Source of the DNA: an uncultured Acidobacteriota bacterium
GTDB taxonomy: Bacteria; Acidobacteriota; Vicinamibacteria; Fen-336
Assembly: GCA_963700695.1 (NCBI GenBank)
Contig: CAVOYO010000012.1
Span: 100,393-164,392 of the forward strand
DNA length: 64,000 bases
Direction of reading: 5' to 3'
Shown here: positions 334 through 51,699 of the stretch, piece after piece
How positions within the stretch are numbered: position 1 is the stretch's first letter
How the letters are laid out: each line of letters starts with the position of its first letter
Made by a program: the position numbers and the translations under genes
Notes under the pieces: model-generated
What the model saw: only the letters and a program-made list of their open reading frames with translations
What the model was told of the DNA's origin: nothing
Databases searched by the model: none

Positions 334-3104
334 CTAATCCGCCACCGGGTTGCCGTCGGCGTCGATGAGTCGGACCTCGCCGAGGTTCAGCTCCCGGATG
401 CCGGGCTCGATCTTGCTGCGGTCACCCACGACGACCCACACGGTGTGGTCGGGCTGGAGGGCAGCGTTGGCCTGATCCTTGATGTCGTCCAGCGTCAGCG
501 CTCGAACCTCGTCGGCGAACGTGCTCCAGTAGTCCTCGTCCAGGTCGAAGCGCACCATCTCCACGATGTCGTTCAGCACGGCCTCGTTGGTCTCCCAGCG
601 GCCGGGGAGGGTGAGCGTCCTCTGGTCCTTGACCCTGTCCAGCTCCTCCGGCGTCGGCGGTCGCTCGCCGCCCGAGCGGATGCCGGTGAGCTCCTTGTGG
701 ATTTCGGCCAGCGCCTCTTTGGTCTTGTCGGTCTGGACCGGCGCGTACACGAAGAACGGGCGTTGCGCGGCCGCGTCGGCGATGACGCTCCGGGCCCCGT
801 AGGTCCAGTGCTTGTCCTCACGCAGGTTCATGTTGATCCGGGCGCTGAAGTTGTCCCCGAAGATCCCGTTGAGCACGTCGATCGCGAGCTCGTTCGGGTT
901 GTTCCTGGGGGGCATGACGTGGCCGGCGAAGAGGATCGACTGCTCGGAGTCGGGCCGGTCCACGAGGTAGACGACCGACGCGGGGCTGGTGCTCCACCTG
1001 GGCCAGGTTCTTCTTCGGGACCTCACCCGGCTCCCAGCCGGCGAACAGGCGCTCGAGCCGCGGCGTCAGCTCGTCCGAGGGTGGTGTCGCCGACGACGAC
1101 CAGCGTGGCGTGGTCGGGCCTGAACCAGGTGGAGTGGAACTGCCTCAGGGTGTCCCGATCCAGCTTCGCGACCGACTCCTCCGTCCCCGAGCCGGTGAGC
1201 GGCTGGCCATACGCGTGGCCCTCTCCGTAGAGCAGCCGTGGGAAGACCCGCAGGGCCATCGACGTGGGCTCCACCTTCTCCCGCTGGATCCTCGCGAGCT
1301 GCTGCTTGCGCAGGCGCTCGAGCTCCTTCTCCGGGAAGGAGGGGTTGAGGACGACGTCCGCGAACAGCTCGAGTGACGGCTCGAGCTTCTCCTTCAGGGC
1401 TGACATCCGGGCGAACGAGAGGTCGAGATCCGACCCCACGTACAGGGTGGCCCCCAGACGATCGAGCTCGTCGGAGATCTCGAGCGCGTCCCGGCTCGCC
1501 GTTCCTTCGTCCAGCATGTCCAGGGCGAGGCGGGCGGTGCCCGGCAGGCCGAACTGGTCGGCGGCGTAGCCGGCATCCATCAGCAGGTCCATCTCCACGA
1601 CCGGGACCGCGTCGCGCCGGGCCAGGATCACCTTCAGCCCGTTCGAGAGCGTCGTGTGCTCACGCCTCGGAAGACGCGCGGTGGGGAAGTCGGCCACACC
1701 CGGGACGCCGGCCGCCCGATCCACGTCGCTCTCCGCCACCGAGTACTCGGCGAACGGCAGTACCTCCAGGGTGAAGACTCCGGGGGTGAGCCACCGCTGG
1801 GCCGTCTCCTGCACCTGCTCCGCGGTGGCGCCGAGGATCCGGGCCTGGGCCGCCTCGTGGCCGTCGGGGCTCCCGTAGTAGACCTGGCTCGCGGCCAGGA
1901 TGTCGGACTTGCCACCGAACCCGCCGACCCGCTCGATCCCGCGGATGAATCCGGCGTGCTGGCTGGTCTTGGACCGCTCGAGCTCCTCGGGCGTGGGGCC
2001 CTCCTCGAGCAGGCGGGCCACCTCTTCCTCCATGGCCCTCTCGACCGCGGCCAGATCGCCGCCGGGCTGGGCGGTGGCCGTGACGATGAAGAGGCCGCCG
2101 AGCTGGCGGGTGTAGTTGAAGGAGCCAACATCCGTAGCGATCTGGTCGTCGTAGACCAGCCTCTTGTGGAGCCGCGAGCTCTTGCCGCTGGTCAGGATGT
2201 CGCTCAGGATGTCCAGGTACTGCTCGTCGGGGTCCCCGAAGGCGGCGACGTTCCACACCTTGTAGATGCGGGCCTGGGGCACGCGGTCCTGGATCGTGTG
2301 CCGGCTCGGCTGGGTGCGCGGCGCGACGTTCGGGCCCGGCTTGATGAGCGGCGGCCCGGACGGGATGTCGCCGAAGTACTTCTCCACTCGGCGCTTCACA
2401 TCCTCGGGCTCCACGTCGCCGGCGACCGCGAGGACGGCGTTGGCCGCGCCGTAGTACGTCTGGAACCACTCGTGCACGTCCTCGAGCGAGGCCGCGTCCA
2501 GGTCCGCCATCGACCCGATCACCGAGTGGTCGTAGGGGTGGCCGGTGGGGTAGGTGTTCTCGAAGATGGTGAGGAAGGCCTTGCCGTAGGGCTGGTTCTC
2601 GCCCTGCCGCTTCTCGTTCTGGACGACGCCGCGCTGCTCGTCGAGCTTGTCCTGGGTGATCGCACCCAGCAGGTGTCCCATGCGGTCGGACTCCATCCAG
2701 AGCGCCATGTCGAGGGCCGTCTTCGGCACGACCTGGAAGTAGTTCGTCCGGTCGTTGTTGGTGGTTCCGTTCATCCCGGTGGCGCCCACGCGATCGAACG
2801 GCTTGAAGTAGTCGTCGTCGTAGTGCTCGCTGCCGTTGAACATCAGGTGCTCGAAGAGGTGGGCGAAGCCCGTCTTGCCGGCCTTCTCGTCGGCCGAGCC
2901 CACGTCGTACCAGACGTTGACCGCGACGACCGGGGCCTTGTGGTCCTCGTGGACGATCAGCGTCAGCCCGTTGTCGAGGACGTACTTCGTGTAGGGGATG
3001 GGGATGACGCCAGCGGGGGTCTCCTCGGCGAGGCTCGCGCCGGTAGGGCCACCCATGGTGACAAGAGCGACGCTCAGCGTCGCGAGAAGGGACGGCGTTC
3101 TCAT
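334..3104 (-). CDS. M16 family zinc peptidase (insulinase-like, two M16 N/C half-repeats), reading frame broken by two apparent +1 indels near 1000-1090
   Basis: 693-aa ORF (1023..3104) has HLFEH (HxxEH) zinc motif, signal peptide and M16 N+C+N domains. 230-aa ORF (334..1026) is the last M16_C domain. A third frame between them reads VVVGDTT-SDELTPRLERLFAGWEPGEVPKKNLAQVEHQ, the expected M16 sequence. Both shifts sit in C-runs. Confidence 0.7.
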
Positions 3105-3323
3105 GTCGGGAATCCTCGCGAGAGATCAGGGTCCAGGCCCCGCGGCGGCGGGGGCCCAACACAGGAATCTACCTCATCGGCAGCTCTCGCGTACATCCCT
3201 CGCGGCGGGCATCCACCACGCGGAAGCGTGACGACCCGCACTGGTATACTGCCCGACGCCGTGGGACATGGCGCAAGGCCCGGCGTCGTCCGTATTCAAC
3301 CAGTTGAACCAAGGGGCAACGAT

Positions 3324-9599: not shown

Positions 9600-10835
9600 G
9601 TGAGGAATCGCGATCGCGAGGTCGTCGTCACGGGCACGGGGGTCTGCTGCCACATGGGCGACGACTGGCCGAGCATCGAGTCGGCGCTGCGCGACGGTCG
9701 GCCCACGCCCTTCGCGACGTGGGCGCCGGCGGTGGAGCTCGAAACACAGTGCCAGGTGGTCGGGATCTACCCGAACGACCTGACGCTCGCGATCCTCGGG
9801 ATCGAGAAGCAGCAGGCGCGGTTCATGGGTCGCGCTGCCCTCCTGGCCTTGCGGGCCGCGCGACTCGCCCTCGGGCAGGCGCAGATCCCGACGCGGGACC
9901 TGGCGGTCGTCGTGGGCAGTGGCACCGGTGATGTGGCGACGCACCGCGACGTGGCTTCACGGCTGGCCCGGGACCGGGGTGCGCGCCGGATCTCGCCGAC
10001 GATCATCCCGCGCCTCATGGCGTCCACCGTCCCCGCGAACCTGGCCACGGTGCTGGGGGCGACCGGTCCGTCCTTCACCGCCACCGCCGCCTGCGCCGGA
10101 GGGGCGTACAACCTGCTGCTCGCCGCCCAGCTCATCGCCCTCGGCCACGTGGACGCGGCGATCGCCGGAGGCGTCGAGGTCGCGGACGTCCACTTCCACG
10201 TGGGCTTCGATGCGATGCGCGCGTACACGTCGAAGGACAACGACCGCCCCGATCGAGCGTCACGGCCCTACGCCGCCGACCGCGCCGGCTTCGTCTTCTC
10301 CGAGGGGGCGGGGGTCCTCGTGCTCGAGACGCGCGCCGGGGCCGACGCCCGTGGAGCAACCATCCTGGGGACACTCAAAGGCTGCGGGATGTCTTCCGAC
10401 GGCACCGGCAACATGGTGGCACCCGCGACCGAGGGAGCGGAGCTCGCGATGCGGCGCGCGCTCGAGCATGCCGGCGTGAGCCCGGGCGACATCGACTACA
10501 TCAATACCCACGGCACGTCCACCCCGCTAGGCGACGTGTCGGAGGTGCGGGCCATTCGGACCGTGTTCGAGGGCCGGCACGTTCCGTACTCCTCGACCAA
10601 GGGGTACACGGGCCACCCCGTCTCCGCCGCCGGGGCGATCGAGGCCATCTTCACGCTGGCGATGCTCCGCGGGGGCTGGATCGCCCCCTGCGTCAACGTG
10701 GAGACGCTGGACCCGGAGCTGGAGGACTACCCGCCGGTGCTGGAGCCCGAGTCGCGGGACATGTCCCTGGCCCTCTCCAACTCTTTCGGCTTCGGCGGGA
10801 CGAACGCGACCCTGGTGCTGGGGCGCCCTACGTGA
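9600..10835 (+). CDS. Beta-ketoacyl-ACP synthase (KAS I/II, FabF/FabB-like)
   Basis: VVVTGTG N-term; active-site Cys in ATAACAGG; His motifs NTHGTST and GYTGHPVSAAG; C-terminal NSFGFGGTN. Cys-His-His KAS triad. Confidence 0.85.
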   Translation: MRNRDREVVVTGTGVCCHMGDDWPSIESALRDGRPTPFATWAPAVELETQCQVVGIYPNDLTLAILGIEKQQARFMGRAALLALRAARLALGQAQIPTRDLAVVVGSGTGDVATHRDVASRLARDRGARRISPTIIPRLMASTVPANLATVLGATGPSFTATAACAGGAYNLLLAAQLIALGHVDAAIAGGVEVADVHFHVGFDAMRAYTSKDNDRPDRASRPYAADRAGFVFSEGAGVLVLETRAGADARGATILGTLKGCGMSSDGTGNMVAPATEGAELAMRRALEHAGVSPGDIDYINTHGTSTPLGDVSEVRAIRTVFEGRHVPYSSTKGYTGHPVSAAGAIEAIFTLAMLRGGWIAPCVNVETLDPELEDYPPVLEPESRDMSLALSNSFGFGGTNATLVLGRPT

Positions 10836-12294
10836 GTGCCTTCAGGAGTGCCTTGACGTGCGCGTAGAAGCGCTGCACCGACGAGATCTGCACCATCTCG
10901 TCCGGTGAATGGGCGTTGCGGATCTCCGGACCGATGGAGACGGCGTCGAGCCCCGGCAGCTTCTCGATCAGGAGCCCGCACTCCAGGCCGGCGTGGATGG
11001 CCTTGAGGGCCGGCCGCTCGCCGAAGAGCTCCTCGTACACGTCGAGGGTCTTGTTCACCAGCGCCGAGTCCGGGTTCGGCTTCCAGCCCGGATAGGCCTC
11101 GTCCTCGTCGACCTCGCCGCCGGCCAGCCGTGAGGCCGAGCGGATCTGCTCACGCACCGCGAAGAGAGCCGGCATCACCGACGACCGGTGCGACGTGGTG
11201 ATCCGGACCGCGTCCTTCTCGGTCGCGACGATGGCGACGTTGTTCGAGGTCTCCACGAGGCCCGGCACGTCCCGGGACATCGAGAGGACGCCGTGCGGCA
11301 GGGTCCGCAGCAGGTGGAGGAGCCGATCCCGGGCGTGCTGGTTGAAGACCTCCCGCATGTCTTCGCTGTCGTCCGGCTCCTCAACGACGATCTCGAGGCC
11401 GGGGTCGATGGCACCGAACTCCGCCTCGAACTCCCCCTTCATCTCCTCGATGACCGCCCGGAGGGCCTCCCGCTCGCCCTTCGGCACGCGGCACGTGGCG
11501 AAGGCCTCCCGGGGGATGGCGTTGTGCTTCGAGCCGCCGTCGAGAGAGACGAGGTCGAGCTCGATGCCCTTCTCGACGGCGGCGAGCAGGATCCGGTTCA
11601 ATACTTTCAACGCGTTGCCCCGGTTCTCGATGATGTTGAGGCCGGAGTGCCCGCCCTTGAGCCCCTTCACCGTGAGCCTGACCGGTACCGAGCCGAGCGA
11701 CCCGCGGCGCCGGGCCACCGGAAGCGTCGTGACGGCATCGGCGCCCCCCGCGCAGCCGAAGTAGACGGCCCCGTCCTCCTCGGTGTCGAGGTTCAGCATC
11801 ACGCGGCCCGAGACGATGGAGGGGTCGAGGGCCTTGGCCCCGGTGAGGCCCGTCTCCTCGTCGACGGTGCAGAGGATCTCGAGCGGGCCGTGCACCACGT
11901 CGGGATCGTCGGCCACGGCCATGGCCGTGGCCACGCCGATGCCGTTGTCGGCGCCGAGGGTGGTCCCGTTGGCCTTCACCCAGTCCCCGTCCACCCGGAC
12001 GTCGATGGGGTCCTTCATGAAGTCGAACGCCACGTCCGAGTTCTTCTCGCAGACCATGTCGAGGTGGCCCTGGAGGATGACGGTCGGGGCCTTCTCGTGG
12101 CCCGGGGTCGCCGGGACCTTCACCGCCAGGCTCCCGGTGGCGTCCTTGAGGACCTCGTAACCCTTGCCCTTCGCCCAGCCCTCCACGTGCGCCGCCACCT
12201 TCTCCTCGTGCTTGGAGGGACGGGGGATCCGGCGGATGTCGTCGAAGTGGGACCAGAGGAGCTTCGGCTCCAGATTCTCCAGGGGACTGCTCAT
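10828..12294 (-). CDS. pepD: Aminoacyl-histidine (Xaa-His) dipeptidase PepD, M20C family
   Basis: MSSPLENLEPKLLWSHFDDIRRIPRPSKHEEKV..., GHLDMV, DNGIGVA, CTVDEETG motifs. Only the C-terminal 488 codons of the 1003-aa track ORF are genuine; the rest is antisense to 12409..14058. ATG at 12294. Confidence 0.85.
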   Translation of the reverse strand: MSSPLENLEPKLLWSHFDDIRRIPRPSKHEEKVAAHVEGWAKGKGYEVLKDATGSLAVKVPATPGHEKAPTVILQGHLDMVCEKNSDVAFDFMKDPIDVRVDGDWVKANGTTLGADNGIGVATAMAVADDPDVVHGPLEILCTVDEETGLTGAKALDPSIVSGRVMLNLDTEEDGAVYFGCAGGADAVTTLPVARRRGSLGSVPVRLTVKGLKGGHSGLNIIENRGNALKVLNRILLAAVEKGIELDLVSLDGGSKHNAIPREAFATCRVPKGEREALRAVIEEMKGEFEAEFGAIDPGLEIVVEEPDDSEDMREVFNQHARDRLLHLLRTLPHGVLSMSRDVPGLVETSNNVAIVATEKDAVRITTSHRSSVMPALFAVREQIRSASRLAGGEVDEDEAYPGWKPNPDSALVNKTLDVYEELFGERPALKAIHAGLECGLLIEKLPGLDAVSIGPEIRNAHSPDEMVQISSVQRFYAHVKALLKALT

Positions 12295-12408: not shown

Positions 12409-14058
12409 ATGAGACGAGTCGTTCTGGTCGGCGTGGCCGCGGGCCTTCTCGGTGGGACGCTCGCCGGCGCCCAGACGGACGACCCGTTCGCACGCGCTCG
12501 CGAGAACGGCGTGCGGTTCGAGGAGGCCCTCTCCCGGTGCCATCGGGTGCTGGAGGCCTGGCTCTCCCACGCCGACGAACGCACGCTGCTCCTTCCGGAC
12601 CGGCTGCCCGGGGAGCGGGGTCTGAAACCTGGGGCCACCCCCCTCTACACGCCCCACAACTCCGGGGCCGACCTCTACCCGTACCTGGTGCTCACCGCGC
12701 ACCTCACCGCTCCCGAGCTCTACCGCGGGCGCATGCTGGAGATGCTCCGGAACGAGGTCCGGTACACGACACGCGCCGACTCGATCCCCGCCAACCTGGC
12801 GCTCACGACCGGCGAGCTGGGCGAGCCCAGCCTGTTCGGGGCCGGCGAGTACGCCAAGGACGGCCTGCTGTCGATCACGGAGCTGCTGGGCCGTACGCCG
12901 TGGTTCTACCGGATGGTCGACATGACCGCGGACCTCATGCGCCACGCGCCGGTGCCGACCCGATTCGGCAACCTCCCGGCCTCCGACTCCGAGCTCAACG
13001 GCGACGTCCTGCAGGTCCTGGTGCGCCTGTGGCCGATGACCGGCGACCATCGTTTCCGCGACTGGGCCCGGCGGATCGGCGATGCCTACGTCGACGAGGT
13101 CCTGCCCGGCAACCACGGCCTGCCGAGCCGGACGTGGGATTTCGAGGCGCACTCGGGGGACGGCCGATTGCGTCTCCGTGACCACGGAAACGAGATCGTG
13201 GTTGGGCTCACGCTGCTGTACGCACTCGAGCAGGCCCGGGAGGGCGATCGTGCCCCGCGATATCGGGCCGCCGTTCAGCGGATGCTCGACCGCATCCTGG
13301 AATCGGCCAACGCCGACGGGATGCTCTACAACGAGATCGACGCGACGACCCTTGCCGCTGTCGATTCGGGGCTCTCGGACAACTGGGGCTACGTCTACGG
13401 TGCCGTGTACTCGTTCTACCAGACGACGGGAATGCCCGCGTACCGGGATGCCGTTCGCCGCGTCCTGACGAACCTGCCCCGCTACCGGGAACACGACTGG
13501 GAATCGGGGTCGTTCGACGGCTACGCGGACGCCATCGAGAGCGCTTTGTACCTCGTCAGCCGCGAGCCGGTGCCCGAGGCCCTCGAGTGGATCGAGTCCG
13601 AGATCCGCATCATGAAGGCCATGCAAAAGCCGTCCGGTCTGATCGAGCACTGGTACGGCGAGGGCAACTTCAACCGCACGCTCCTGCTCTATGCGCTCTT
13701 CAAGAGCCAGGGCTGTCGACCTGATCGCTGGACGCCGGGCGTCCGCCTCGGCGCCGTGCGCGACGGTGAGCGTTTGCGGCTGAGCCTGGTCGAACCGGAG
13801 GGCCGGAACGGCCGCGTCCACTTCGACCGGGCCCGGCACCGCCGTGTCCTTAATCTAGACCGGGACTACGTGAGGCTGAACGAGTTTCCCGAGTGGTTCG
13901 TGATCGACGAGAACACGCTTTACCGTCTCGTGCCCAAACGGGGTGACGCCCATGTGCGTCTGGGCTCGGAGCTGATCGACGGTATCGCGCTCGAGCCGGG
14001 CGAGTGGACCGTCGAGCCCCTGGGGCCGCCCCCCTACGGGCCGGACCTCGTCCCCTGA
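12409..14058 (+). CDS. Secreted hypothetical protein, possibly (alpha/alpha)-barrel glycoside-hydrolase-like
   Basis: MRRVVLVGVAAGLLGGTLAGAQT signal peptide preceded by GGGGG SD-like; coherent globular sequence (DNWGYVYGAVYSFYQTTGMPAYRDAV). Family not recognised with certainty. Confidence 0.55.
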   Translation: MRRVVLVGVAAGLLGGTLAGAQTDDPFARARENGVRFEEALSRCHRVLEAWLSHADERTLLLPDRLPGERGLKPGATPLYTPHNSGADLYPYLVLTAHLTAPELYRGRMLEMLRNEVRYTTRADSIPANLALTTGELGEPSLFGAGEYAKDGLLSITELLGRTPWFYRMVDMTADLMRHAPVPTRFGNLPASDSELNGDVLQVLVRLWPMTGDHRFRDWARRIGDAYVDEVLPGNHGLPSRTWDFEAHSGDGRLRLRDHGNEIVVGLTLLYALEQAREGDRAPRYRAAVQRMLDRILESANADGMLYNEIDATTLAAVDSGLSDNWGYVYGAVYSFYQTTGMPAYRDAVRRVLTNLPRYREHDWESGSFDGYADAIESALYLVSREPVPEALEWIESEIRIMKAMQKPSGLIEHWYGEGNFNRTLLLYALFKSQGCRPDRWTPGVRLGAVRDGERLRLSLVEPEGRNGRVHFDRARHRRVLNLDRDYVRLNEFPEWFVIDENTLYRLVPKRGDAHVRLGSELIDGIALEPGEWTVEPLGPPPYGPDLVP

Positions 14059-14063
14059 TCGCT

Positions 14064-16993
14064 CTACGAGGCCGACACCTCGAGACCGCAAGTGCTGAGC
14101 GAGAAGTCGACGAGGCGGGCGCGGGCGTTCTCGAAGCGCTGGCGCAGCAGATCGCGTAGCGCTTCCGCGTGGTGCAGATCGGGTGAGGCGAACAGAGCGT
14201 ACCCGCCCCCGCCGGCCCCGAGGAGCTTGACGCCATCGCAGTGATCACGCGTGGCGGAGAGGATCTCCTCCACCTCCGGGTTGGTCGTGCTCGGGTGCAC
14301 CCGGCAGTTGGCCTGCCAGGAGAGGGCCAGGACGTCGGCGATGGCCCGCCGATCGCGCCGCTCGATGGCGTCCTTGGCGTCCAACGCGAGCTGGGCCATG
14401 TGCTGGAGGGTGAAGAGGTACGCCTTCGATCCGCTGTTCACCTGGTCGACCACGTCGGCCAGGATGTTCTTCGCCAGGCGGGTGATGCCCGTGTAGAACA
14501 GCGTGAAGCAGCCCAGGCTGTCCCGGTCCTGAAACAGGATAGGGATCGAGCTGGTGGGTGACGGGATGCGGCCGGAAGCCGGGGCGGCTCTGGATGCACT
14601 TGATGCCCGCCGACCGCGCCCCCGATTTGATCCTGCCAGCCCCCACCCGTGGTCAGCATCTGCTCCACCTGGAGGACCTGACGGATCAGCTCGTCCATGA
14701 TGACGGGCCGACCGAAGAAGCGCGAGAACGCGGCCAGGATGACCGCCCCCAGGATCGAGGAGGTCCCGAGGCCCGAGCCCTTGGGCACCGCGCACAGCAG
14801 CGTGATCTCCAGCCCGGCGCCGAGGCGTTCGAGAAGATCCCCGAGCGTCCGGCTCTCGTCCTCCGCGACGCCAATCCCCATCAGGGAGAGCGCGGCCTTC
14901 GGCAGCGCGAAGGGTGAGGCGGGATCGTTGTGGTCCCGCAGCTGCTCGAAGCGGGTGAACGTCTCGGTGTGGCCCAGGTCGATCGAGTGGATGCGCACGT
15001 GGCGCTCCGCGGTGCGGCGGCAGAACACCTGGATGGGCGGCTGCCCGTTGAGGTCCACCGCGAGGTTCACCACCCGGCCGCCGTGGCGCAGCGTGTAGGG
15101 CGGGGTGTCGGTCCACCCGCCGGCGACGTCGAGCCGCACCGGGGCCCGCGCCCACACGATCTGGTCCTCCTTGAGGGCCAGGCGAAGCGGGAGAGCGTCC
15201 GTCGTCCGTGGCACGTACTCGATCTCAGGAAGCCGTGGCGCCGCATCCGCGCGCGGCCCGGCGATCGTGCGATAGAGACGCTCGCGGTAGGCGCGCAAGA
15301 CGGCGTCGTCGGTGCGCTCGAGCCACTCGGCGAGCGGGCGACGCCACTCCTCGCCTCCGAACGTGGATTCAAAATCCTGCGCGCTCACCCCTTGCCAGCC
15401 ATGACCGCGTTCAAAGAGGTCGCGTAGCAACTCCCGGCGCCGGGCCACCCGGCGATCCTCCCGGCGGAGAACGTCGTCACCCTCCAGGATCTCGTAGAAC
15501 GACCAGCGCCGCGCCGCGCGGAAATTGTCGGTCCAGCTCGAGTCCGGGCGGGTCAGGTAGCCGGCGAGGAGCTCGGTCGACGGATCACAACAGAACAGCC
15601 GCGCGGCGAAGAGGTCGGTCGCGTCGTCGCCCTCGAAGACGTCCGCCCGGGTGAGCCTGCGCTCGTCGAGCCACCGGTCGAGGGGCTCACCGCAGTAGAC
15701 GAGGTCAGCCGGGTCGTCGGCGACCCTGAAGCTGTCCTGGGCGGAGACGACCACGATGACCCGATCCTCGCCGAGCCAGCGCTCCTCGATCGCGATCCCC
15801 GCCGGAATCTCGAAGGGTATCTCGGCGCCGTCGAGCCCCACGAGGAGGTTGTCGCCGCCGAGAGACGGGAACGAGCAGGATGAGCAGGACTCCACGAGCA
15901 CCGGCGCGTGGGCGGGGCCTCCCGTGCTCACGGTGGCGCTGTTGTGGATGATGCCCTCCGATGTCACCAGCGGTCGGATCTCGCCCTCCTCGGGCTCGTA
16001 GAAGGGCCGTGCCTGGTGGGCGATGAGCTCGCGGCAGGCCCCGGGGAACTCGGAGAGGCTCCCGAGGTGCAGGAACGTCGTCGATCGGGTGATCGTTCCG
16101 CCGAGCCCGAACGGGTGGAACGCCTCGTAAACCACGCGCGCCAGCGCCGGGGGGAGGGTGCTCGCGTCCTTCACGCGCTCCCAGAAGGCCTCGAAGGAGA
16201 GGCCATCCAGGCACGCGGTCAGCACCTCCAGATACAGGTCGAAGCGCGCCCGTCCGGACGCCAGTCCGCCCATGAGCGAGCCGCCCTCGAAGGGCGTCTC
16301 GCCCAGGGTGAGGAAGGCCTGGAGGGCCCCCGGGTCCAGGGAGAGGAGCCCGATGTCGAGGGCGCACTCTCCGGTGCCTTCGATCAGCGCCTGCTCGGCC
16401 AGGACCCCGACCGGTGCCTTCTGGAAGTAATCGATCACCCGCTCGCGGCGCCGGTCGAAGCGGAAGACGCCGTGACGCGAGCCCTGCTCCAGGGGAGCCG
16501 GCTTGGCGAATCCGAACACGGGCCCCCGCTCCTCGGGCACGCTCGCCGCGTCGAAGTCGATGAACACGTCCGCGGTGGTGACCACGGTCTCTCCGGGTCG
16601 CCAGGGGTACTTCAAGAAGAGCCCGAGCTGGGCATCGAGCACCACCGGAGGCAGCAGCGCGCTCGACGGCAGGGGCAGAGGCGCAAAGAGCTTTCCCTCG
16701 GAGGCATAGCATGGCAGCCGGCGGCTCTCCCCGCCTGCGTGGATCAACAGGATGCGCTGGCGTCCCAGGAACTCGGCGGAGTCGTCGGGCTCTCGGCGCT
16801 CGAGGAGCTGCGCGAGCGCCCACAGCGTCCCGCCTCCGGTGCCCACGCGGCCGCCGGCGGGGTCGGCGACCACCTCGAAGGCGATCTCGCGGGGGTAGAG
16901 GCCGGCATTCTGTCGGCGGGCGATCAGGCTGCGGAAGGCCTCCGCCTGTCGCTCGGAGGCGGCGGTGATGAGGACGATGTCGAAGAGCTGCAT
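14064..16993 (-). CDS. fkp: Bifunctional L-fucokinase / L-fucose-1-phosphate guanylyltransferase (FKP/FKGP-like), frame broken twice near 14560-14595
   Basis: N-terminal fucose-1-P guanylyltransferase/'fucokinase' domain. GHMP-kinase motif PKGSGLGTSSILGAVILAAFS, then TTGGGWQDQIGGAVGG. The continuation IKCIQSRPGF and SSIPILFQDRDSLGCFTLFYTGITRLA...KLLGAGGGGYALF lie in the other two frames (track ORFs 14245..14646 and 14064..15155). Total ~975 aa, matching FKP length. Confidence 0.75.
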
Positions 16994-17130
16994 GGATCTT
17001 CCGGAGCGTCCGAGGCGCCTATCCTCTCACAGCGGGAGAACAGGGAGTGTCACCGTCGGACGCTCCACGGGGGTGTGATACCTTCCGCTTGCCGGCGTCC
17101 CGGGCGGGACAAGGAGGGTGTGAGTCGGCC

Positions 17131-18105
17131 ATGAAGAGAGCGGTGGTCTGCGGTGCGGGTGGCTTCATCGGGGGCCACCTGGTCGAGCGTCTGAAGAAGG
17201 AGGGCCTCTGGGTGCGAGGGGTCGACATCAAGCAGCACGAGTTCCGGCAGACGGCTGCCGACGAGTTCCTGCAGCTCGATCTCCGTGACCCGGAGAGCTG
17301 CGTGCGGGCGGTGCTCGTCGACGGCAAACCCGCCGACGAGGTCTATCAGCTGGCCGCCGACATGGGCGGCATGGGATTCATCCACTCCGCCGAGTGCGAG
17401 ATCATGCACAACAGCCTGCTGATCAACACGCACATGAGCCACGCGGCGGCCCAGCAGGGAGTGCCCCGCTATCTCTTCTCTTCGTCGGCGTGCGTCTATC
17501 GGGATCAGCAGCCGGACGAGCCGGACCTCACCGAGGACGACGCGTACCCGGCACAGCCCGACAACGAGTACGGCTGGGAGAAGCTCTACTCGGAGCGGGT
17601 GGCGCTGGCCTACCAGCGCAACCAGGGCATGACGGTGCGGGTGGCCCGCTTCCAGAACTGCTACGGGCCCTACGGCACCTGGAACGGCGGACGCGAGAAG
17701 GCCCCCGCCGCGATGTGCCGCAAGGTCGCGGCGGTCGAGGACGGCGGCACGATCGAGGTGTGGGGCGACGGGACGGCCATGCGCGTCTTCACCTACGTCG
17801 ACGACCTCGTCGACGGCATCCACCTGCTCATGCAGTCCGACGTCGAAGAGCCCACGAACATCGGCGCCGACGAGCGCATATCCGTCAACGGCCTCGTGGC
17901 GCTCGTGGCCGAGGTGGCCGGCAAGAAGGTGAACACCCGCCACGTCGACGGCCCCGTGGGCGTTCACGCGCGCAACCACAGCTCGGACCGGATCCGCGCG
18001 ATGGGCTGGGTCGACCGGCACAGCCTCCGTGACGGCATTGCCAGGACGTACCCCTGGGTGAAGGAGCAGACCGAGCAGGCAATGGCGCGCGGGGAGAGGG
18101 TCTAG
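17131..18105 (+). CDS. gme: GDP-mannose 3,5-epimerase (GME) homolog, SDR family
   Basis: Near-identity blocks to plant GME: GAGGFIGGHL, LAADMGGMGFI, SSSACVY, ARFQNCYGPYGTWNGGREKAPAAMCRK, WVKEQ. AAGGAGGG SD 12 nt upstream of ATG 17131. Confidence 0.85.
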   Translation: MKRAVVCGAGGFIGGHLVERLKKEGLWVRGVDIKQHEFRQTAADEFLQLDLRDPESCVRAVLVDGKPADEVYQLAADMGGMGFIHSAECEIMHNSLLINTHMSHAAAQQGVPRYLFSSSACVYRDQQPDEPDLTEDDAYPAQPDNEYGWEKLYSERVALAYQRNQGMTVRVARFQNCYGPYGTWNGGREKAPAAMCRKVAAVEDGGTIEVWGDGTAMRVFTYVDDLVDGIHLLMQSDVEEPTNIGADERISVNGLVALVAEVAGKKVNTRHVDGPVGVHARNHSSDRIRAMGWVDRHSLRDGIARTYPWVKEQTEQAMARGERV

Positions 18106-18408
18106 CCGCCGGCAAGGCTGACGTCCCGCGGCGCGCTGTCCGCCCATCGGGCGAGGGACCTGTCCACCCTGACCGTCCGAGGGAACTCTCGAAGGGTACT
18201 GGCCCCGGCTCTGCCTGCCACTTCCCGCAAGGGACATCGCGCCGGTTCTGTCCGAAAACTCGCCATTCGTGTGGCCTGTCCCGATCGCGACGGTGCACAG
18301 CCCAACTCTCTGATCCACAGCCAGTTGTGCGCCTGTGGTCGGGTTTCACCGGGATGGCACGCCCCTTGATGTCTTCGCCCGCGGCCGAGGTTGGCCGTGG
18401 AGGGCGTC

Positions 18409-18930
18409 ATGCAGAGGGCGATCAAGACGATGTCGGTGCTGGCGGCGCTGGTCATGGCCGCGGCGTGCGGCAGCGACTCCAACCCTACCGCTCCGAGCAC
18501 CCCGGTCGAGACCACGGCACCGAAGGCCGACATCACAGTGGCCGTCGGCCCGGACGCGGTCTCTGGACCGAGCCTCGATCCCGGCTACACGAGCTACGTC
18601 CGGTTCACCGCCTCGATGAGCGAGGCCGCAGGCCTCGGTGCCCACCTCAACTACGTGCGCGGGGACTTCTACCAGGATGGCGCCCTCGTGGACCGGTCCC
18701 ACTTCACCGCGGCTCAGCTCATCGAGGAGACGGGATCGAACCGGCTCGAAGCGGCCTCCGCACGGAGCTTCCCCGTGCTCCTCCGGTGGAACGCCTCCTG
18801 CGACCTGATCCGGGTGACGTTCCAGTTCACCGACGACCAGGGCCACGACCACCACCTCGTCGGGAACATCGGCCCCACCTCGACCGCTATCGCGGCCTCG
18901 ACGGACGACGACGAGGCGCCTCGCCTGTAG
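18409..18930 (+). CDS. Hypothetical lipoprotein
   Basis: MQRAIKTMSVLAALVMAAACGSD lipobox (AAC); GGAGGG SD before ATG 18409. Confidence 0.55.
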   Translation: MQRAIKTMSVLAALVMAAACGSDSNPTAPSTPVETTAPKADITVAVGPDAVSGPSLDPGYTSYVRFTASMSEAAGLGAHLNYVRGDFYQDGALVDRSHFTAAQLIEETGSNRLEAASARSFPVLLRWNASCDLIRVTFQFTDDQGHDHHLVGNIGPTSTAIAASTDDDEAPRL

Positions 18931-18957: not shown

Positions 18958-20151
18958 TCACCTTCGGCTCGCGATGAAGGCGTCCCGTGCGGCCACGCCG
19001 AGACCCGGATGATCGGTGAAGAAGCCGTCGACGCCGGCCTCCAGAAAGAGGAGAGCCTCGCCCTGCATATCTCCAGTGTCGTCCGGGGCGTTGCCGTCAC
19101 GCAAGGCACGGGGCAAGTAGACATTCTCGGCCCGGAGCGTCCACACGTGGACGAGGAGGGTGGCGCGGTGGGCCCCTCTCACGAGAGGCGTCGGGGCGCT
19201 CAGATGACCCGCCCCGTCGGGGGAGAGGACGAGGCCCTTGTGGACACCGATGCCACGGGCGTAGGTGGCGATCTCCGCCAGTCCTTCCGGGGTGACGAGG
19301 TCGGCGTAGGTCCTCCGGTCGCCGGCGCGGGCGAGGTCGGGGGGCTGGCCGGTCGGGGCGATGAGCTGGACGAGGGGCAGGCGCGTCATGCGCCGGAGCT
19401 TCTTGAGGTTCGTGACCTCGAAGGACTGGATGAAGACCGGATCGTCGGCGTCGCTCCATCCATGCCGAAGCAGGGCCTCCACCAGCGGTTCCTCCAGGGG
19501 GAGGCCGATCCCAGCGAAGTGGGACGGGTGCTTCGTCTCGGGATACAAACCGACAGGACGACGCTGGCGGTCTGCCCGCTCGTTCACCTCCGCCAGAAGA
19601 TCGAGGATCTCCCGGAGCGTCGGGATCTCGAACCTCCCATCGTAATCGGTCGTCCTCAGACCAGGCAGGCGTTCCCGGGCGCGGAGGGTCTTCAGCTCGG
19701 CGAGGGTGAAGTCCTCGGTGAACCAGCCCGTGACCTCCACACCCTCGATCGACCTGGTCGTCCGGCGACCGGCGAACTCGGGGTGGTCGGCGACGTCGGT
19801 GGTCTCGGAGATCTCGTTCTCGTGGCGGGCGACCAGCAGCCCGTCGCGCGTCGCCACGAGATCGGGCTCGATGAAGTCGGCCCCCTGCTCGATCGCCAGC
19901 CGGTAGGCCTCGAGGGTGTGCTCCGGGCGATGGCCGCTCGCGCCCCGGTGAGCGATGACAATAGGGTCGTCTTCTCCCGGTGCCGCCGCCGCGGTCACTA
20001 CGGCGAGTACGGCCACACCGACCAGCCCAGTCGCCTTCAGCGCGTTCACAGCAGCCGCCGCTCGTCGAGGAATCGAATCAGCGGCCGCCCCAGAAGGTCC
20101 TCCTGCTGCTTCTCCAGGGCCCGCAGCGTCAGGGCTCGGGTTCTCGTTCAC
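18958..20151 (-). CDS. Glycerophosphodiester phosphodiesterase (GlpQ/UgpQ family), exported
   Basis: IVIAHRGASGHRPEHTLEAY...ADFIEPDL GDPD catalytic motifs; hydrophobic N-terminal segment. Exact start uncertain. Confidence 0.8.
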   Translation of the reverse strand: MNENPSPDAAGPGEAAGGPSGAAADSIPRRAAAAVNALKATGLVGVAVLAVVTAAAAPGEDDPIVIAHRGASGHRPEHTLEAYRLAIEQGADFIEPDLVATRDGLLVARHENEISETTDVADHPEFAGRRTTRSIEGVEVTGWFTEDFTLAELKTLRARERLPGLRTTDYDGRFEIPTLREILDLLAEVNERADRQRRPVGLYPETKHPSHFAGIGLPLEEPLVEALLRHGWSDADDPVFIQSFEVTNLKKLRRMTRLPLVQLIAPTGQPPDLARAGDRRTYADLVTPEGLAEIATYARGIGVHKGLVLSPDGAGHLSAPTPLVRGAHRATLLVHVWTLRAENVYLPRALRDGNAPDDTGDMQGEALLFLEAGVDGFFTDHPGLGVAARDAFIASRR

Positions 20152-26661: not shown

Positions 26662-27760
26662 ATGACGACCGCGAAGCGCGTTCACAATTTCGGGGCGGGC
26701 CCGGCGGCGCTTCCGCTGCCGGTGCTGGAGCAGGTGCAGGCGGAGCTTCTCGACCACGGCGGCACGGGCATGTCCGTGATGGAGCTGAGCCACCGCTCGG
26801 CCGCGTTCGGAGAGGTGATCGAGCAGGCCGAGGCCGACCTGCGGGTCCTTCTCGGCCTGTCCTCGGACTACGCCGTCCTCTTTCTACAAGGGGGCGCCTC
26901 GCTGCAGTTCGCGATGGTGCCGGCGAATCTGCGGCCGGCCGGGGCCTCCGCCGACTACGTGCTGACCGGGAACTGGTCGAGGGCGGCCATCAAGGAGGCG
27001 GCCAAGGGAGGCAGAGTCCGCACGGTCGGCTCGACCGAGCCCTCCGGCTTCGACCGCATCCCCGCCCAGGGGGAGCTCGACTTCGACCCGCAGGCCGCCT
27101 ACGCCCACTTCACGTCCAACAACACGATATACGGGACCCAGTGGCCGACCGAGCCGGAGGCCCCGTCCGGGCGTGCCGCTCGTGTGCGACGCCTCTTCCG
27201 ACGCGCTGAGCCGACCCATCGACATCCGCCGCTACGGCGTGCTCTACGCCGGGGCCCAGAAGAACCTCGGACCCGCCGGGATCGCGGTGGTCGTGGTGCG
27301 CCAGGAGCTCCTGGAGCGGACACCGGGAGGGCTGCCCGCGCTCATGGACTACCGGCTCATGGCCGAGAAGCGCTCCCTCTACAACACCCCGCCCACCTTC
27401 ACCGTGTACGTTGTGGGCCGCGTGTTGAGGTGGCTCAGGGAGCTGGGGGGACTGGCCGAGATCGCAAAGCGAAACGAGGCGAAAGCGGCGCTTCTCTATG
27501 ACGCGATCGACGCGAGCGGCGGCTTCTACCGCGGTCACGCGCGGAAGGAGAGCCGCTCCCGGATGAACGTCACATTCCGCCTCCCAACCGAGGACCTCGA
27601 GGAGCATTTTCTGAAGGAGGCGGGGCCCGCCGACCTCGCCGGCCTCAAGGGCCACCGCTCCGTGGGGGGGCTGCGGGCCTCGATCTACAACGCCTGTCCG
27701 ATCGAATCGGTGCGAGCGCTCGTGGACTTCATGGCGGACTTCAAGAAGCGCCGCGGCTGA
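26662..27760 (+). CDS. serC: Phosphoserine aminotransferase SerC, frame broken once near 27165 (extra G in GGG run)
   Basis: NFGAGPAALPLPVLEQ...MELSHRS N-term in frame 1. PLVCDASSDALSRPID...GAQKNLGPAG and the C-terminus are in frame 2 (ORF 27173..27760). Removing one g from ccgtccgggcgtgccg restores EPEAPSGVPLVCD. Confidence 0.8.
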
Positions 27761-34982: not shown

Positions 34983-37692
34983 TCACTCCGAGGCGTCGGG
35001 CAAGCTCAGCAGCCAGATGTTGGCCTCGAGGGATTCGGCCTGGACGAGCACGGAGCGGCCGTTGCGGGACACCCCCAGCTGCTCCTTGTCGACCGAGCCG
35101 CTGCTCTCGAGGGGGCCAACGTCGCGGGCGGCGCCTGTCGTGTGGTCGACCAGCGTCAGGCGCCCTCCGTCGCCGAGCACGACGAGATTGCGCGAATCGG
35201 GCAGCCAGCGTGCCACGAACCCGGGCCGCTCGAGCGGCCGGTACTCCTCGGCTTCGAAGGACCATAGCAGGAGGTCCGGGCGGACGGCGCCCGCGCGCAA
35301 AGACGCGTTCCCGATCAGCCAGCGGCCGTCGTGCGACCAGTCGCGCACCTCGTACCAGTGGTCCGCCGACAGGTCGGGCAGGCATTCCGTCGCTGACACC
35401 GGCGTGTCTGCCACGGTGATGATGCAGGTGCCCCTCCCGGTGGGAAAGGCGATTCGCGTCCCATCCGGCGACCAGTAGGGGAACCACGCCCCGTCGGCGA
35501 CATCCGTGCGCTGTCGGAGGCCGCTGCCGTCCGGCCGGATGCTCCACACCTGATACGTCCCCGAGCGGTTGGAGTAGAAGGCGATCTCGGAGCCGTCCGG
35601 CGACCACTGCGGGCCGCGATCCCGGAAGGGATCGTCGGTGAGCTGCCGGAGCTCGCCCCCTCCGCTCTGCAGGACGTAAAGGTCCTCGCGGCTTCCCGCG
35701 GTCGTCAGCGCGATCGAGTCTCCGTCGGGCGAAGGTTGGGTGTAGCCGATCGGCAGAGCCCCGGCGAGGATCGTCCTCGCGTCGCCGGCCGGCCGGAGCC
35801 GCTCCGGGTCGAGCGGCAGCGAGTGGAGGTAGTGGAGGGTCGAGCGGGAGACATACCCCAGGCTCCCGCCCTCTCTCGCCACGGCGAGCCAGGCCACCTG
35901 CTCCGCCGGCGTCCCCACGAGCACGGGCTCTCCGTCGGCCGCGCCGGTCGCCGGGTCGATCGCCACACGCCACACGTTCATGGTGCCGGCCCGGTCGCTC
36001 ACGAAGTAGAGTTGGCGTCCGTCGGGCGACCAGACCGGGTTCCAGTCGACAGGGACGTCTGTCGTGACGGCCACCGGTTCACCCTGGCCCTCCGCGTCGA
36101 TCGTGGCGAGGTCGCGCTGGCCCGAGTTGCCGTTCACCCTCCAGAAGGCGATCCGGCGACCGTCGGGTGACCACGCGGGCTGGACGGCGTCGCCCGAGTA
36201 GATGCGGCGGGTCTCCCCGGAGACCACGGCGATCGTCCACAGCTCGGCGGCCGCGGCCTGGCGACTCAGGGGATCGTTGATGCCCTCGGTCGAGACCACC
36301 ACGCGGCTGCCGTCCGGGGACCAGCTGGGGTTGTGGCCCAGGTCGCCGAGGCGCCGCACCGATTCCCCGGTTGCCCCCATCAGGAAGATGCCACCCCCGC
36401 CCCTCTCCGAGCGGAACACGATCTGCCTTCCATCCGGCGAGAAAGCAGGCTCGGTGTCCGCGGCCGGGGAGTCCTCCGTCAGGTTGATGGCGTTGCGGCC
36501 GTCGACGCGCTGGAGGTAGATGTCGGCGTTGCCGGAGGCCTCGCTCATGTAGACGACCTGACGGCCGTCCGGCGAGAGCGCGGGGTGGTTCTCGACGCCC
36601 TTGTGGAAGGTCAGCTGCTGCGCGCTCCAGCCCACACCACCCGTCGTCTCCGCGCTGCCGCTCCCCCAGGAAGCGCCCGAGGACGGCGCCGGCGACCGCG
36701 GCCACCCCGACCGCGAGTGCCAGCGCCACCCTGCTCCTCCCCGACCGGCGCCGCGCGTCCGCGGTCTCCGCAGACGACGCCGGGCCGCCTGCATGCTGGA
36801 TCCAGGTCAGCTCCTCCGCGACGTCGTGCGCCGACTGCCAGCGTTCCTCCCGGTCCTTCTCCAGGCACCGGGCGATCACGTGCTCGAGCGAGGGCGGGGT
36901 GAGGGGCTGCCGCTCCCCGACCGGGGCCGGCACGTCCCTCATGATGCTGCTGATCAGGCTGGCCTGGCTCTTCCCCGCAAACGGAGGCCGCCCCGTGGCC
37001 ATCTCGTAGAGCAGGCAGCCGAGGGCCCAGATGTCGGCTCGTGCGTCCGCCTCTTCCCCCTCGAGCTGCTCGGGGGCCATGTATTGGAAGGTGCCGAGCA
37101 CGGCTCCCGCCTCGGTGAGCGGTGGCTTGGCCTCGGTCGGGGCGCTCGAGTCCTGGGGGGGCGCCCCCGGAGCGAGCCCGGTCGGCGCGTTCGACTCCGT
37201 CCGCTCCTGCTCCGCCAGGCCGCTCTTGGCGAGGCCGAAGTCCAGCAGCTTGGCCCCGGACTTGGTGAGCATGACATTGCCCGGCTTCAGATCGCGATGA
37301 GCGATGCCAGCGCGATGAGCCCGGTCGAGGGCACCCGCCACCTGGGCCCCGATCTTCAGGAGCTGATCGAGAGGCAGCGCCCCCTTGGCCAGCCGCTCGG
37401 CGAGGCTCTCGCCCTCGAGGTGCTCCATGACCAGGAAGCGGACGCCGTCCTCCTCGCCCACGTCGAAGAGCGTACAGATGTGGGGGTGGCTGAGAGCCGC
37501 GACCGCCTTGGCCTCGCGCTCGAAGCGCTCAAGGCGCTGCGGGTGCTCGGCCAGGTGGCCGGGGAGCACCTTGATCGCGACCGAACGGTCGAGCCGCGTG
37601 TCCTGGGCGCGGTACACCTCGCCCATCCCCCCCGCGCCGAGCGGAGATTCGATCTCGTAGGGCCCGAGGCGCTGACCGGACTTCAGGCTCAT
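34983..37692 (-). CDS. Ser/Thr protein kinase fused via TM segment to TolB-like WD40-like beta-propeller repeats; frame broken once near 36660 (G-run)
   Basis: Kinase: GPYEIESPLGAGGMGEVYRAQD, HRDLKPGNVML, DFGLAK, GTFQYMAPE. TM segment VALALAVGVAAVAGAVLG. The other frame (34983..36794) continues with repeated SPDGRxIAF / WSPDG propeller blades. The junction ctgggggagcgg has a 5-G run. Confidence 0.75.
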
Positions 37693-37889
37693 CGTCGCCC
37701 CTCCCCGGTCCCCGCAGGCGAGGCGGTCGCCCTGGTCCACGGGGCCGTCACACATCTTTCTTGGAACGATCCCGCAGCATACACCAGGTGAGCCCCTCTG
37801 GTCGTCGGCTTGCCGGGAATGACGGGTGGCCACCCGGCGTTGCATCATGGTAGGGGGCCGTGCGGATCCGCTCCGCCCCGGGGGAACCC

Positions 37890-46673: not shown

Positions 46674-47783
46674 TCAATGCACGGTGTCCGTCTTGTGGCT
46701 GGACCCGGCTGCCCCCGTGTCCGTCACGTGGTGCGTCACTCCCGCGGCGTCGAGGGCCCGCGCCGTCTCGGCGCCGACCCGCGACGTGGTCTCGACCCAG
46801 CGAACCCGTCCGCCGAGGCGCTCGAGGAGCCGACGGCGAGCCCAGGGCCGATCGAGACCCCCCGGCCACCGCGGCCCGAGACCGCGACACGAGGCCTCGA
46901 GCCACCCGCCCGACAGGACCATCTTGTGGGGCCGAAGCTCGGCGACGTCCTTGTCCGTACGTGCCTCCTGGCCCAGGGCGGTCGTCGTGAGGCCGTCGCC
47001 GACGAAGCCCGCGAGGGCGAGGCGCGTCCCCAGGTCCACCCGGGGGCCTTCGAGGTAGGCCACGTCGCCCTCGGCTGCCGGGTGGGCCCGCAGCCACGGC
47101 TCGAGCCGCGCCATCGCACCGCCGTGGGTCAGGCGGGCGAGCCCTTCCGGGGCTGCGTGCCAGTACGCCTCGCTCCCGGGGTCGATCTGCCGCGACACGG
47201 CGCGGAAGGACTGCGCCCGCTCCGCAGTGTCGAGGATCGAGCCCAGCTCCAGAAAGCGCTCCAGGGGCAGCAGGCCCTCCTCCTCGGGCAGGCCCTCCGC
47301 CACGACCGTGGCGCTGCCGAGTCGGCCCTCCCGACGCAGGCGCTCCGCGCGCTCGACGCTCTCGGGATCCGTGGCGAAAACCGCCCGGACCCCGGCCTGG
47401 CGCAAGATGTCGACGAGGACGGCGTCGGCGAGGTCGTGCTCGAGGCCGACCGACGCCGACCCGAAGCCCATGGCCGCGAAGTCCACGACCGGCCAGAGCC
47501 AGCTGAGCCGGCCGAAGACCGCCACCCGGTCCCCCGGCTCCACCCCCAGCCTCTCCCGGCCGAAGAGGGCGGTGCGGATCGCCAGGCGGTCCAGCTTCCA
47601 GTCGGGCACGAACTCGAATCCACCGTCCGACGGCCAGGCCATGACCGCCGGTCGGACGTGGTGCCGCAGGCCGAGGTCGTAGAGACCGGCCACCGTCTCC
47701 GGGATGCGGTGCAGAGGCCGCGGGCCCTGGCGTCTGGGGGCGTCGTCCCCAAAGACGTCTTCCGCGGTGATGTAGAGCAGCAT
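46674..47783 (-). CDS. AMP-binding (adenylate-forming) N-domain-like protein with degenerate P-loop, truncated (369 aa)
   Basis: Classic ANL N-terminal block GVEPGDRVAVFGRLSWLWPVVDFAAMGFGSASVGLE, but SGTTGxPKG is replaced by AAPEGLARLTHGG; no C-terminal subdomain. 52-nt gap to the radical SAM start. Confidence 0.55.
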   Translation of the reverse strand: MLLYITAEDVFGDDAPRRQGPRPLHRIPETVAGLYDLGLRHHVRPAVMAWPSDGGFEFVPDWKLDRLAIRTALFGRERLGVEPGDRVAVFGRLSWLWPVVDFAAMGFGSASVGLEHDLADAVLVDILRQAGVRAVFATDPESVERAERLRREGRLGSATVVAEGLPEEEGLLPLERFLELGSILDTAERAQSFRAVSRQIDPGSEAYWHAAPEGLARLTHGGAMARLEPWLRAHPAAEGDVAYLEGPRVDLGTRLALAGFVGDGLTTTALGQEARTDKDVAELRPHKMVLSGGWLEASCRGLGPRWPGGLDRPWARRRLLERLGGRVRWVETTSRVGAETARALDAAGVTHHVTDTGAAGSSHKTDTVH

Positions 47784-51595: not shown

Positions 51596-51699
51596 TCTAG
51601 TTCCCCACGAGAAACGACCGGGGCGCAGCTTTCGACGACTCGCCCCGGCACGACGCATCCGTTCCGGGAAGGTCGGCTCGTGGGACGTTCCCTGAACGA

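Follow-up and report, generated by a model that had tools for sequence, protein, structure and literature searches.

A divergent pair of an FKP-type gene and a GDP-mannose 3,5-epimerase-type gene in Vicinamibacteria-type Acidobacteriota

Layout of the locus and identity of the two genes

Two neighbouring genes that point away from each other in a 64-kb stretch of Acidobacteriota DNA (the window, meaning the whole of that stretch) are considered here. One encodes a short-chain dehydrogenase/reductase (SDR) resembling GDP-mannose 3,5-epimerase (GME), and the other a large protein of the FKP family of bifunctional fucokinase/GDP-fucose pyrophosphorylases. The window has a G+C content of ~69% and the closest relatives of its proteins are from Vicinamibacteria or other Acidobacteria bacteria; the Vicinamibacteria class label applied to the gene pair is taken from the names of these relatives. 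An earlier, sequence-only reading of the window (the original prediction) had placed a 324-aa SDR at 17131..18105 and an FKP of ~975 aa on either side of a 137-bp divergent spacer, and the recomputed coordinates agree with it throughout. Three-frame translation and the high-scoring segment pairs (HSPs) from tblastn also bear out that the FKP gene, in the sequence as given, is split by two indels. The features of the locus are as follows.

17131..18105, plus strand: GME-like SDR gene (ATG 17131, TAG 18105, 324 aa)
16994..17130, no strand: divergent intergenic spacer between FKP and GME, exactly 137 bp
14064..16993, minus strand: FKP-type gene as a whole (ATG 16993, TAG 14064), 975 codons in three frames
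14606..16993, minus strand: FKP part 1, codons 1-796; pyrophosphorylase domain, linker and N-terminal part of the GHMP fucokinase domain
14605, minus strand: frameshift 1, a single surplus G/C base in GGCGGGC (run 14605-14608)
14539..14604, minus strand: FKP part 2, codons 797-818 (IKCIQSRPGFRPHPVTHQLDPY), second frame
14538, minus strand: frameshift 2, a single surplus C in TAT-C-CTG (CC at 14537-14538)
14064..14537, minus strand: FKP part 3, codons 819-975 (157 codons) plus stop, third frame; C-terminal part of the GHMP kinase domain

The identity of the SDR was computed directly from database comparisons. In phmmer searches of the PDB, the protein matched four entries for the Arabidopsis enzyme (AtGME) at 277-280 bits (2c59: 280 bits, E 2e-82) and another solved GME at 276 bits, while the next family, GDP-L-fucose synthase, reached 100 bits and all others 90 bits or less. 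The sequence GAGGFIG at residues 8-14 is the GxxGxxG NAD-binding motif of extended SDRs, and SSSAC and YGWEK align column for column with SSAC and YGLEK of AtGME, with the triad S143, Y174 and K178 kept. In addition, the Cys of SSSACVY, the Lys of GGREKAPAA and the Arg of VHARN align to C145, K217 and R306 of AtGME. GME is described as using the Ser-Tyr-Lys triad of SDRs together with a Cys145/Lys217 acid-base pair by which C5 and C3 are epimerised, with Arg306 supporting the thiolate (PMC6678494, PMC8787198). The length of 324 aa and the start codon agree with homologues of 98-85% identity. Because of the difference between 280 bits for AtGME and 100 bits for GDP-fucose synthase, the low score against the Fcl (GDP-fucose synthase) model and the conserved catalytic residues, the SDR is, as judged by sequence, of GME type (GME/GM35E, EC 5.1.3.18) and not a GDP-fucose synthase, as had been proposed. 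The blocks LAADMGGMGFI, SSSACVY and RFQNCYGPYGTWNGGREKAPAAMCRK, originally cited as part of a long near-identity with plant GME, are all present and align to Arabidopsis GME as described; the near-identity is, however, only local, since overall identity is 44% over 310 aligned residues.

Generic profile matches are what would favour some other nucleotide-sugar epimerase or reductase, for example a GDP-fucose synthase or a 4-epimerase. Pfam resolves the SDR only to the Epimerase family (PF01370, E 5e-45, residues 5-245), and in NCBIfam, which is without a GME model, the best match is the Fcl model NF047922. This match, at 122 bits, is far under the cut-off of 500 and under the 444-473 bits scored by the Fcl-like neighbours of other FKPs, and members of the SDR's cluster are named GDP-D-mannose 3',5'-epimerase by JGI. 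Together with the PDB scores and the presence of the GME-specific Cys/Lys pair and Arg306, this renders a non-GME identity very improbable.

The SDR shares with AtGME (PDB 2C59/2C54/2C5A/2C5E) the extended SDR fold, an alignment that runs from end to end (SDR residues 6-322 against AtGME residues 34-350) and the position of the glycine-rich motif, which reads GxxGxxG here and GxxGxxA in the plant enzyme. The N- and C-terminal extensions of ~30 residues found in the plant enzyme are absent, and in size the SDR is similar to bacterial homologues. A bacterial GME, MfGM35E of Methylacidiphilum fumariolicum, was characterised in 2019, and Acidobacteria were already among the UniProt homologues listed in that study (PMC6678494). 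Compared by description, the MfGM35E gene has a glycosyltransferase and a methyltransferase as neighbours, whereas the SDR gene here adjoins FKP.

The large gene is, from its profile matches, clearly a member of the bifunctional FKP family, in a branch without a characterised representative. Part 1 matches PF07959 (E 3e-33, residues 75-469) and GHMP_kinases_N (E 1e-10), and part 3 matches GHMP_kinases_C (E 5e-7). The gene is also colinear with the FKP equivalog PRK13412 (974 positions), of which part 1 covers positions 51-796 (384 bits) and part 3 positions 818-973 (122 bits), with a gap at 796-818 that corresponds to the 22 middle-frame codons. The bifunctional fucokinase/GDP-fucose pyrophosphorylase of the original prediction is confirmed by these matches. 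The best PDB matches are structures of the Bacteroides fragilis enzyme (BfFKP; 5YYS and 9IIT, 280 bits), with which the protein shares domain order, length (975 vs 949 aa) and the PF07959 and GHMP N/C domains. All of the kinase catalytic and fucose-binding residues (R592, W599, D601, T602, E751, G759, Q761 and D762 in BfFKP numbering) are kept; PVRLDVAGGWTDTPPY and VEQMLTTGGGWQDQ align to the corresponding BfFKP motifs and form invariant columns in the alignment with relatives. Likewise kept are the GTP-binding and catalytic residues of the pyrophosphorylase (D31, H73, G75, G76, S78, R79, R80, K89 and D136), to which VADP, HAGGESRRLP...EGK and TADV align. The retained set comprises the catalytic, nucleotide-contact and fucose-contact residues whose roles have been described for BfFKP (PMC11982464). 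S39 of BfFKP is replaced by Thr. The two enzymes differ in that identity to Bacteroides/Bacteroidota FKPs is only 31-32% and the summed score of the pieces (~506 bits) lies under the 721-bit cut-off of the NCBIfam equivalog NF009948, a model centred on Bacteroidota-type sequences. The gene here is also interrupted by two +1 insertions in the assembly, and its branch mates are sequences from Spirochaetota, Fibrobacterota and Chitinivibrionales at 43-58% identity.

Distribution of the two families and linkage of FKP to GME

Both families are more widespread than the original prediction allowed. GME had been called rare in bacteria, but in the homologue search each of the 8000 candidates scored had E<=1e-20, with many of them from Anaerolineae, Kiritimatiellae, Lentisphaerae and Vicinamibacteria and many named GDP-D-mannose 3',5'-epimerase by JGI. 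The GME-like proteins form 781 clusters at 50% identity (E<=1e-30). With homologues so abundant in bacterial metagenomes, and with a bacterial enzyme already characterised (PMC6678494), the statement on rarity does not hold. GME-like domains also lie at the N- or C-terminal end of proteins of 645-845 aa (P0261, P0263, P0270, P0289, P0291 and P0337), the sequences of which suggest fusion of the domain to a partner domain. The description of FKP as known mainly from Bacteroides and plants proved too narrow, with 392 related coding stretches in species-representative genomes of Acidobacteriota, Spirochaetota, Fibrobacterota, Chitinivibrionales, Verrucomicrobiota and others, and with three clades of FKPs described that include many bacteria (PMC12732313). 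The closest FKP among the species-representative genomes returned is that of locus L003, at 89% identity.

Linkage was computed directly in a survey of FKP loci drawn from species-representative genomes and from JGI metagenomes, with neighbours judged within the flank DNA of each locus. GME directly adjoins FKP in 14 Acidobacteriota-type (Vicinamibacteria-type) loci, in three arrangements.

Divergent GME/FKP, as here (n=8): L001-L004, L010, L083, L085, L110
GME then FKP (n=3): L006, L007, L092
FKP then GME (n=3): L099, L123, L124

The retention of adjacency through such rearrangements points to functional coupling of GME and FKP. In ~15 loci from Spirochaetota and other lineages, the gene next to FKP encodes an Fcl-like SDR and never a GME. 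These SDRs were identified by scoring NF047922 on six proteins including a GME-type control: those of L032, L035, L040 and L049 reached 444-473 bits and that of L019 289 bits, against 117 bits for the control from L006 and 117-122 bits for the Vicinamibacteria GME neighbours. The remaining Fcl-like neighbours were assigned by 52-71% identity to the Fcl-like SDR of L040. The Fcl-like gene lies directly beside FKP, often 3-20 bp away (L026, L028, L032, L034, L035, L036, L040, L049, L076, L093, L103 and others). Bacteroidota FKP loci, unlike the one described here, are flanked by neither GME nor Fcl.

The two pairings are alike in that FKP directly adjoins the gene of an SDR whose product is a GDP-L-hexose and whose precursor derives from GDP-mannose. 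They differ in that Fcl/GMER belongs to another SDR family, with Cys/His chemistry, a 4-keto-6-deoxy substrate and GDP-L-fucose rather than GDP-L-galactose as product. Because GME and Fcl alternate as the partner by lineage, the gene orders suggest a tendency of FKP to adjoin whichever enzyme makes a GDP-L-hexose de novo. The open-access literature searched yielded no account of a conserved pairing of FKP and GME genes. What is new is only the FKP-GME linkage and its contrast with Fcl-FKP, both genes being otherwise ordinary members of known families.

The co-directional GME-FKP loci L006 (1962-3944 and 8936-10327) and L007 (3797-4924 and 8941-10152) have carbohydrate-processing neighbours, including a heparinase II/III-like/DUF4962 protein, GFO/IDH/MocA oxidoreductases (one with a twin-arginine translocation signal) and a GH130 mannoside phosphorylase.

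Frameshifts in the FKP gene and elsewhere in the window

The single surplus bases at 14605 and 14538 divide the FKP gene among three reading frames. Removal of both yields a product of 975 aa with no internal stops, colinear from end to end with intact homologues of 971-975 aa at identities of 89%, 84% and 79%. When the FKPs of L003, L004 and L010 were used as tblastn queries, three HSPs, one each in frames -1, -2 and -3, met exactly at the two junctions, with the frame -1 HSP of part 1 extending to 14606. Removal of the surplus base at frameshift 1 restores ...GGAVGG-IKCIQ..., which is identical in relatives, and removal of the C at frameshift 2 gives DPYLFQDRDS, as in the relative P0001. The 22 residues of part 2 differ hardly at all from P0001 and P0002, and part 3 is 84-91% identical to relatives (tblastn, frame -3).

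Other broken genes in the window were found by a codon-usage frame plot and profile searches. A gene for an M16-family peptidase (334-3125, minus strand), intact at 922 aa in the relative L001, is read in three frames, with two insertions ~95 nt apart that bracket 32 codons.

~1067-1082, minus strand: M16 peptidase junction 1, surplus G at ~1075 (CTC-G-GAC)
~975-991, minus strand: M16 peptidase junction 2, surplus C at ~982 (CAGCCC-C-GCG)

A class-V aminotransferase gene (26722-27760, plus strand) is split at 27163-27181 by one surplus G/C into two open reading frames (ORFs), which correspond to Pfam profile positions 16-158 and 173-371. Each of the five frameshifts verified in the window (two in FKP, two in the M16 peptidase gene and one in the aminotransferase gene) is a +1 insertion of G/C beside the same base, and both FKP and the M16 peptidase gene carry a pair of insertions 65-95 nt apart. 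Within FKP, dN/dS is 0.11-0.16 downstream of the shifts and 0.19-0.25 upstream, so that selection appears not to be relaxed downstream, and the corrected ORF has no stop codon and no other damage. The full-length relatives, more than 20 in number, are all intact. Since the same +1 G/C type occurs in housekeeping genes, dN/dS is not raised and the 22 intervening codons are conserved, both FKP frameshifts are considered likely to be single-base insertion errors of the assembly in a gene that is probably intact in the organism.

The gene could instead be a true, recent pseudogene of this strain, in which case L-fucose salvage would have been lost and only GME, with de novo GDP-L-galactose synthesis, would work. 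Consistent with this, the two +1 shifts do not compensate each other and the annotated product of the sequence as given (P0003, 851 aa) is cut off early, and salvage enzymes are easily lost (PMC12732313). Gene decay may also occur elsewhere in this genome, as a remnant of a sigma-54-dependent activator lies at 50868-51658 (minus strand). Its PAS domain is cut after ~60 residues and runs on, in a different frame, into the last AAA+ motif, lid and HTH_8, while the Walker/GAFTGA core (~200 aa) is missing. By its sequence this gap is a true deletion or a misassembly and not a base-calling error, and the genome may therefore hold true pseudogenes or misassemblies. The shifts in FKP are, however, of the same type as those that break the housekeeping M16 peptidase and aminotransferase genes. 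Bacterial natural indel spectra are commonly reported as deletion-biased, and insertions in five of five cases would be unexpected under such spectra. Given also the unrelaxed selection downstream, the near-perfect conservation between the shifts and the intact relatives, pseudogenisation is regarded as unlikely. The two indels of the original prediction are present in the sequence, but the biological meaning attached to them is weakened by the like insertions in housekeeping genes.

Programmed ribosomal frameshifting or transcriptional slippage, which would allow the shifts to be bypassed, was tried as a further explanation and rejected. Both sites do lie in short G/C runs, but the runs are only 2-3 bases long, there is no slippery heptamer and two consecutive +1 events would be needed. 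The shift is found in none of the intact relatives, and identical events occur in unrelated genes of the window, leaving the chance of such a mechanism negligible. Errors of the assembly remain the favoured explanation. The assembly is accordingly flagged as indel-prone, and its "split genes" are not to be taken as biology without read checks. A search of JGI metagenome contigs with a 34/35-nt pattern across frameshift 1, with or without the surplus base, gave zero matches and hence no independent sequence of this strain.

Two further regions of the window may be interrupted. At 34983-37740 (minus strand), a PD40 beta-propeller in another frame comes, with no gap, after a Ser/Thr protein kinase that has a transmembrane segment; the two probably make up a single gene carrying one more +1 shift near 36646, where coding potential switches frame. 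The ORF at 46674-47783 (minus strand) matches only positions 40-134 of a 384-position AMP-binding profile.

Proposed supply of GDP-L-hexoses and genomic surroundings

The locus is interpreted as a module of two genes, conserved in Vicinamibacteria-type Acidobacteriota, that provides L-hexoses in GDP-activated form and in which FKP is probably intact, a reading to which a probability of roughly 60% is assigned. GME would turn GDP-D-mannose into GDP-L-galactose, with GDP-L-gulose as by-product, by transient oxidation at C4 followed by Cys/Lys-catalysed epimerisation at C5 and C3. The GHMP-kinase domain of FKP would phosphorylate free L-fucose at C1 to give L-fucose 1-phosphate, and its N-terminal pyrophosphorylase domain would join the sugar-1-phosphate with GTP to form GDP-beta-L-fucose. 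By analogy with the B. fragilis enzyme, FKP probably also takes L-galactose, less efficiently; BfFKP turns L-galactose into GDP-L-galactose with a Km of 3345 uM, compared with 34 uM for L-fucose (~100-fold weaker; PMC11982464), and GDP-L-galactose is usable by fucosyltransferases (PMC8787198). The two genes may be transcribed divergently from the 137-bp spacer and its two conserved blocks, and both enzymes would feed one GDP-beta-L-hexose pool for fucosyl- or L-galactosyltransferases encoded elsewhere in the genome. The lineage-specific pattern of FKP partners supports such a shared supply of GDP-L-fucose and GDP-L-galactose.

Several observations weigh against this interpretation. In ~12 further Acidobacteriota-type FKP loci there is no GME within the flank, so that linkage is frequent and not universal. 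Profile searches of the window found no glycosyltransferase, gmd, fcl or manC near the pair, the sole glycosyltransferase of the window being a GT4 at 54333-55424. The low identity to Bacteroidota FKPs, the score under the equivalog cut-off, the chance that FKP was truly and very recently inactivated and the activator remnant set out above count on the same side. The suggestion in the original prediction of an undescribed glycan containing L-fucose and/or L-galactose fares unevenly: the functional linkage of FKP and GME in 14 loci speaks for it, but with no glycosyltransferase, gmd or manC nearby the target glycan is a matter of pure inference.

A more far-reaching possibility is that the FKP of this clade is an L-galactokinase/GDP-L-galactose pyrophosphorylase, such that GME (de novo) and FKP (salvage) would form one GDP-L-galactose pathway, mirroring Fcl and FKP. 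Vicinamibacteria would then run a dedicated GDP-L-galactose economy, with FKP recycling L-galactose (and L-fucose) to the pool filled by GME and with L-galactose taking the place of L-fucose in surface glycans. The lineage-dependent swap of partner, with GME in Vicinamibacteria and an Fcl-like SDR elsewhere, fits this proposal, as does the conversion of L-galactose by BfFKP (PMC11982464), and the mur1 example, as cited in PMC8787198, illustrates that L-galactose can stand in for L-fucose in glycans. However, the described sugar contacts are all unchanged, including Trp599, which stacks on C4-C5-C6. A comparison of specificity-determining positions between GME-linked FKPs and Fcl-linked plus Bacteroides FKPs gave no support for altered sugar specificity: only three alignment columns separate the groups, and none of the three is at a sugar contact. 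All three are shared by Acidobacteria FKPs with no GME nearby and therefore reflect phylogeny rather than sugar specificity. Both the altered FKP specificity and the dedicated economy are, on this evidence, distinctly unlikely. If true, the swap of FKP partner between lineages would be a genomic signature of a switch from L-fucose to L-galactose.

In the favoured interpretation, the pair in Vicinamibacteria would point to an undescribed glycan containing L-fucose or L-galactose, and the conserved pairing offers a modest, testable lead on the L-sugar glycobiology of these bacteria. The contrast with the Fcl-FKP pairing of Spirochaetota provides a simple, testable comparative hypothesis on which GDP-L-hexose is used in each lineage. 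The GME and FKP sequences described here are, in addition, new candidates for enzymatic GDP-L-sugar production.

Alignment of the spacer from six divergent loci, the FKPs of which are 78-89% identical, revealed two (nearly) invariant blocks within variable surrounding sequence.

17074-17085, read on the minus strand: conserved spacer block GAAGGTATCACA
17018-17032, read on the minus strand: conserved spacer block CTGTGAGAGGATAGG

Their conservation makes both blocks candidate promoter or operator elements. A scan of 13900-18500 for sigma-70 consensus promoters found none, and scans of the window for tRNAs and with Rfam revealed no RNA genes. The pair is surrounded by housekeeping genes, which also include those for an M74 peptidase, an SPFH protein and others, and FKP is convergent to an ORF with good coding statistics.

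9600-10835: ketoacyl synthase
10828-12294: M20 dipeptidase
12433-14058, plus strand: ORF of 541 aa, convergent to FKP
18958-20049: glycerophosphodiester phosphodiesterase

The 541-aa ORF had no matches in the PDB or NCBIfam and only a sub-threshold match to GH88. It was considered as a member of the module and rejected, being absent from the closest relative, L003. The position it occupies is variable: in L003, the M20 dipeptidase gene comes right after FKP, and in L001 and L002 genes for DUF2938 and PEMT proteins are found there.

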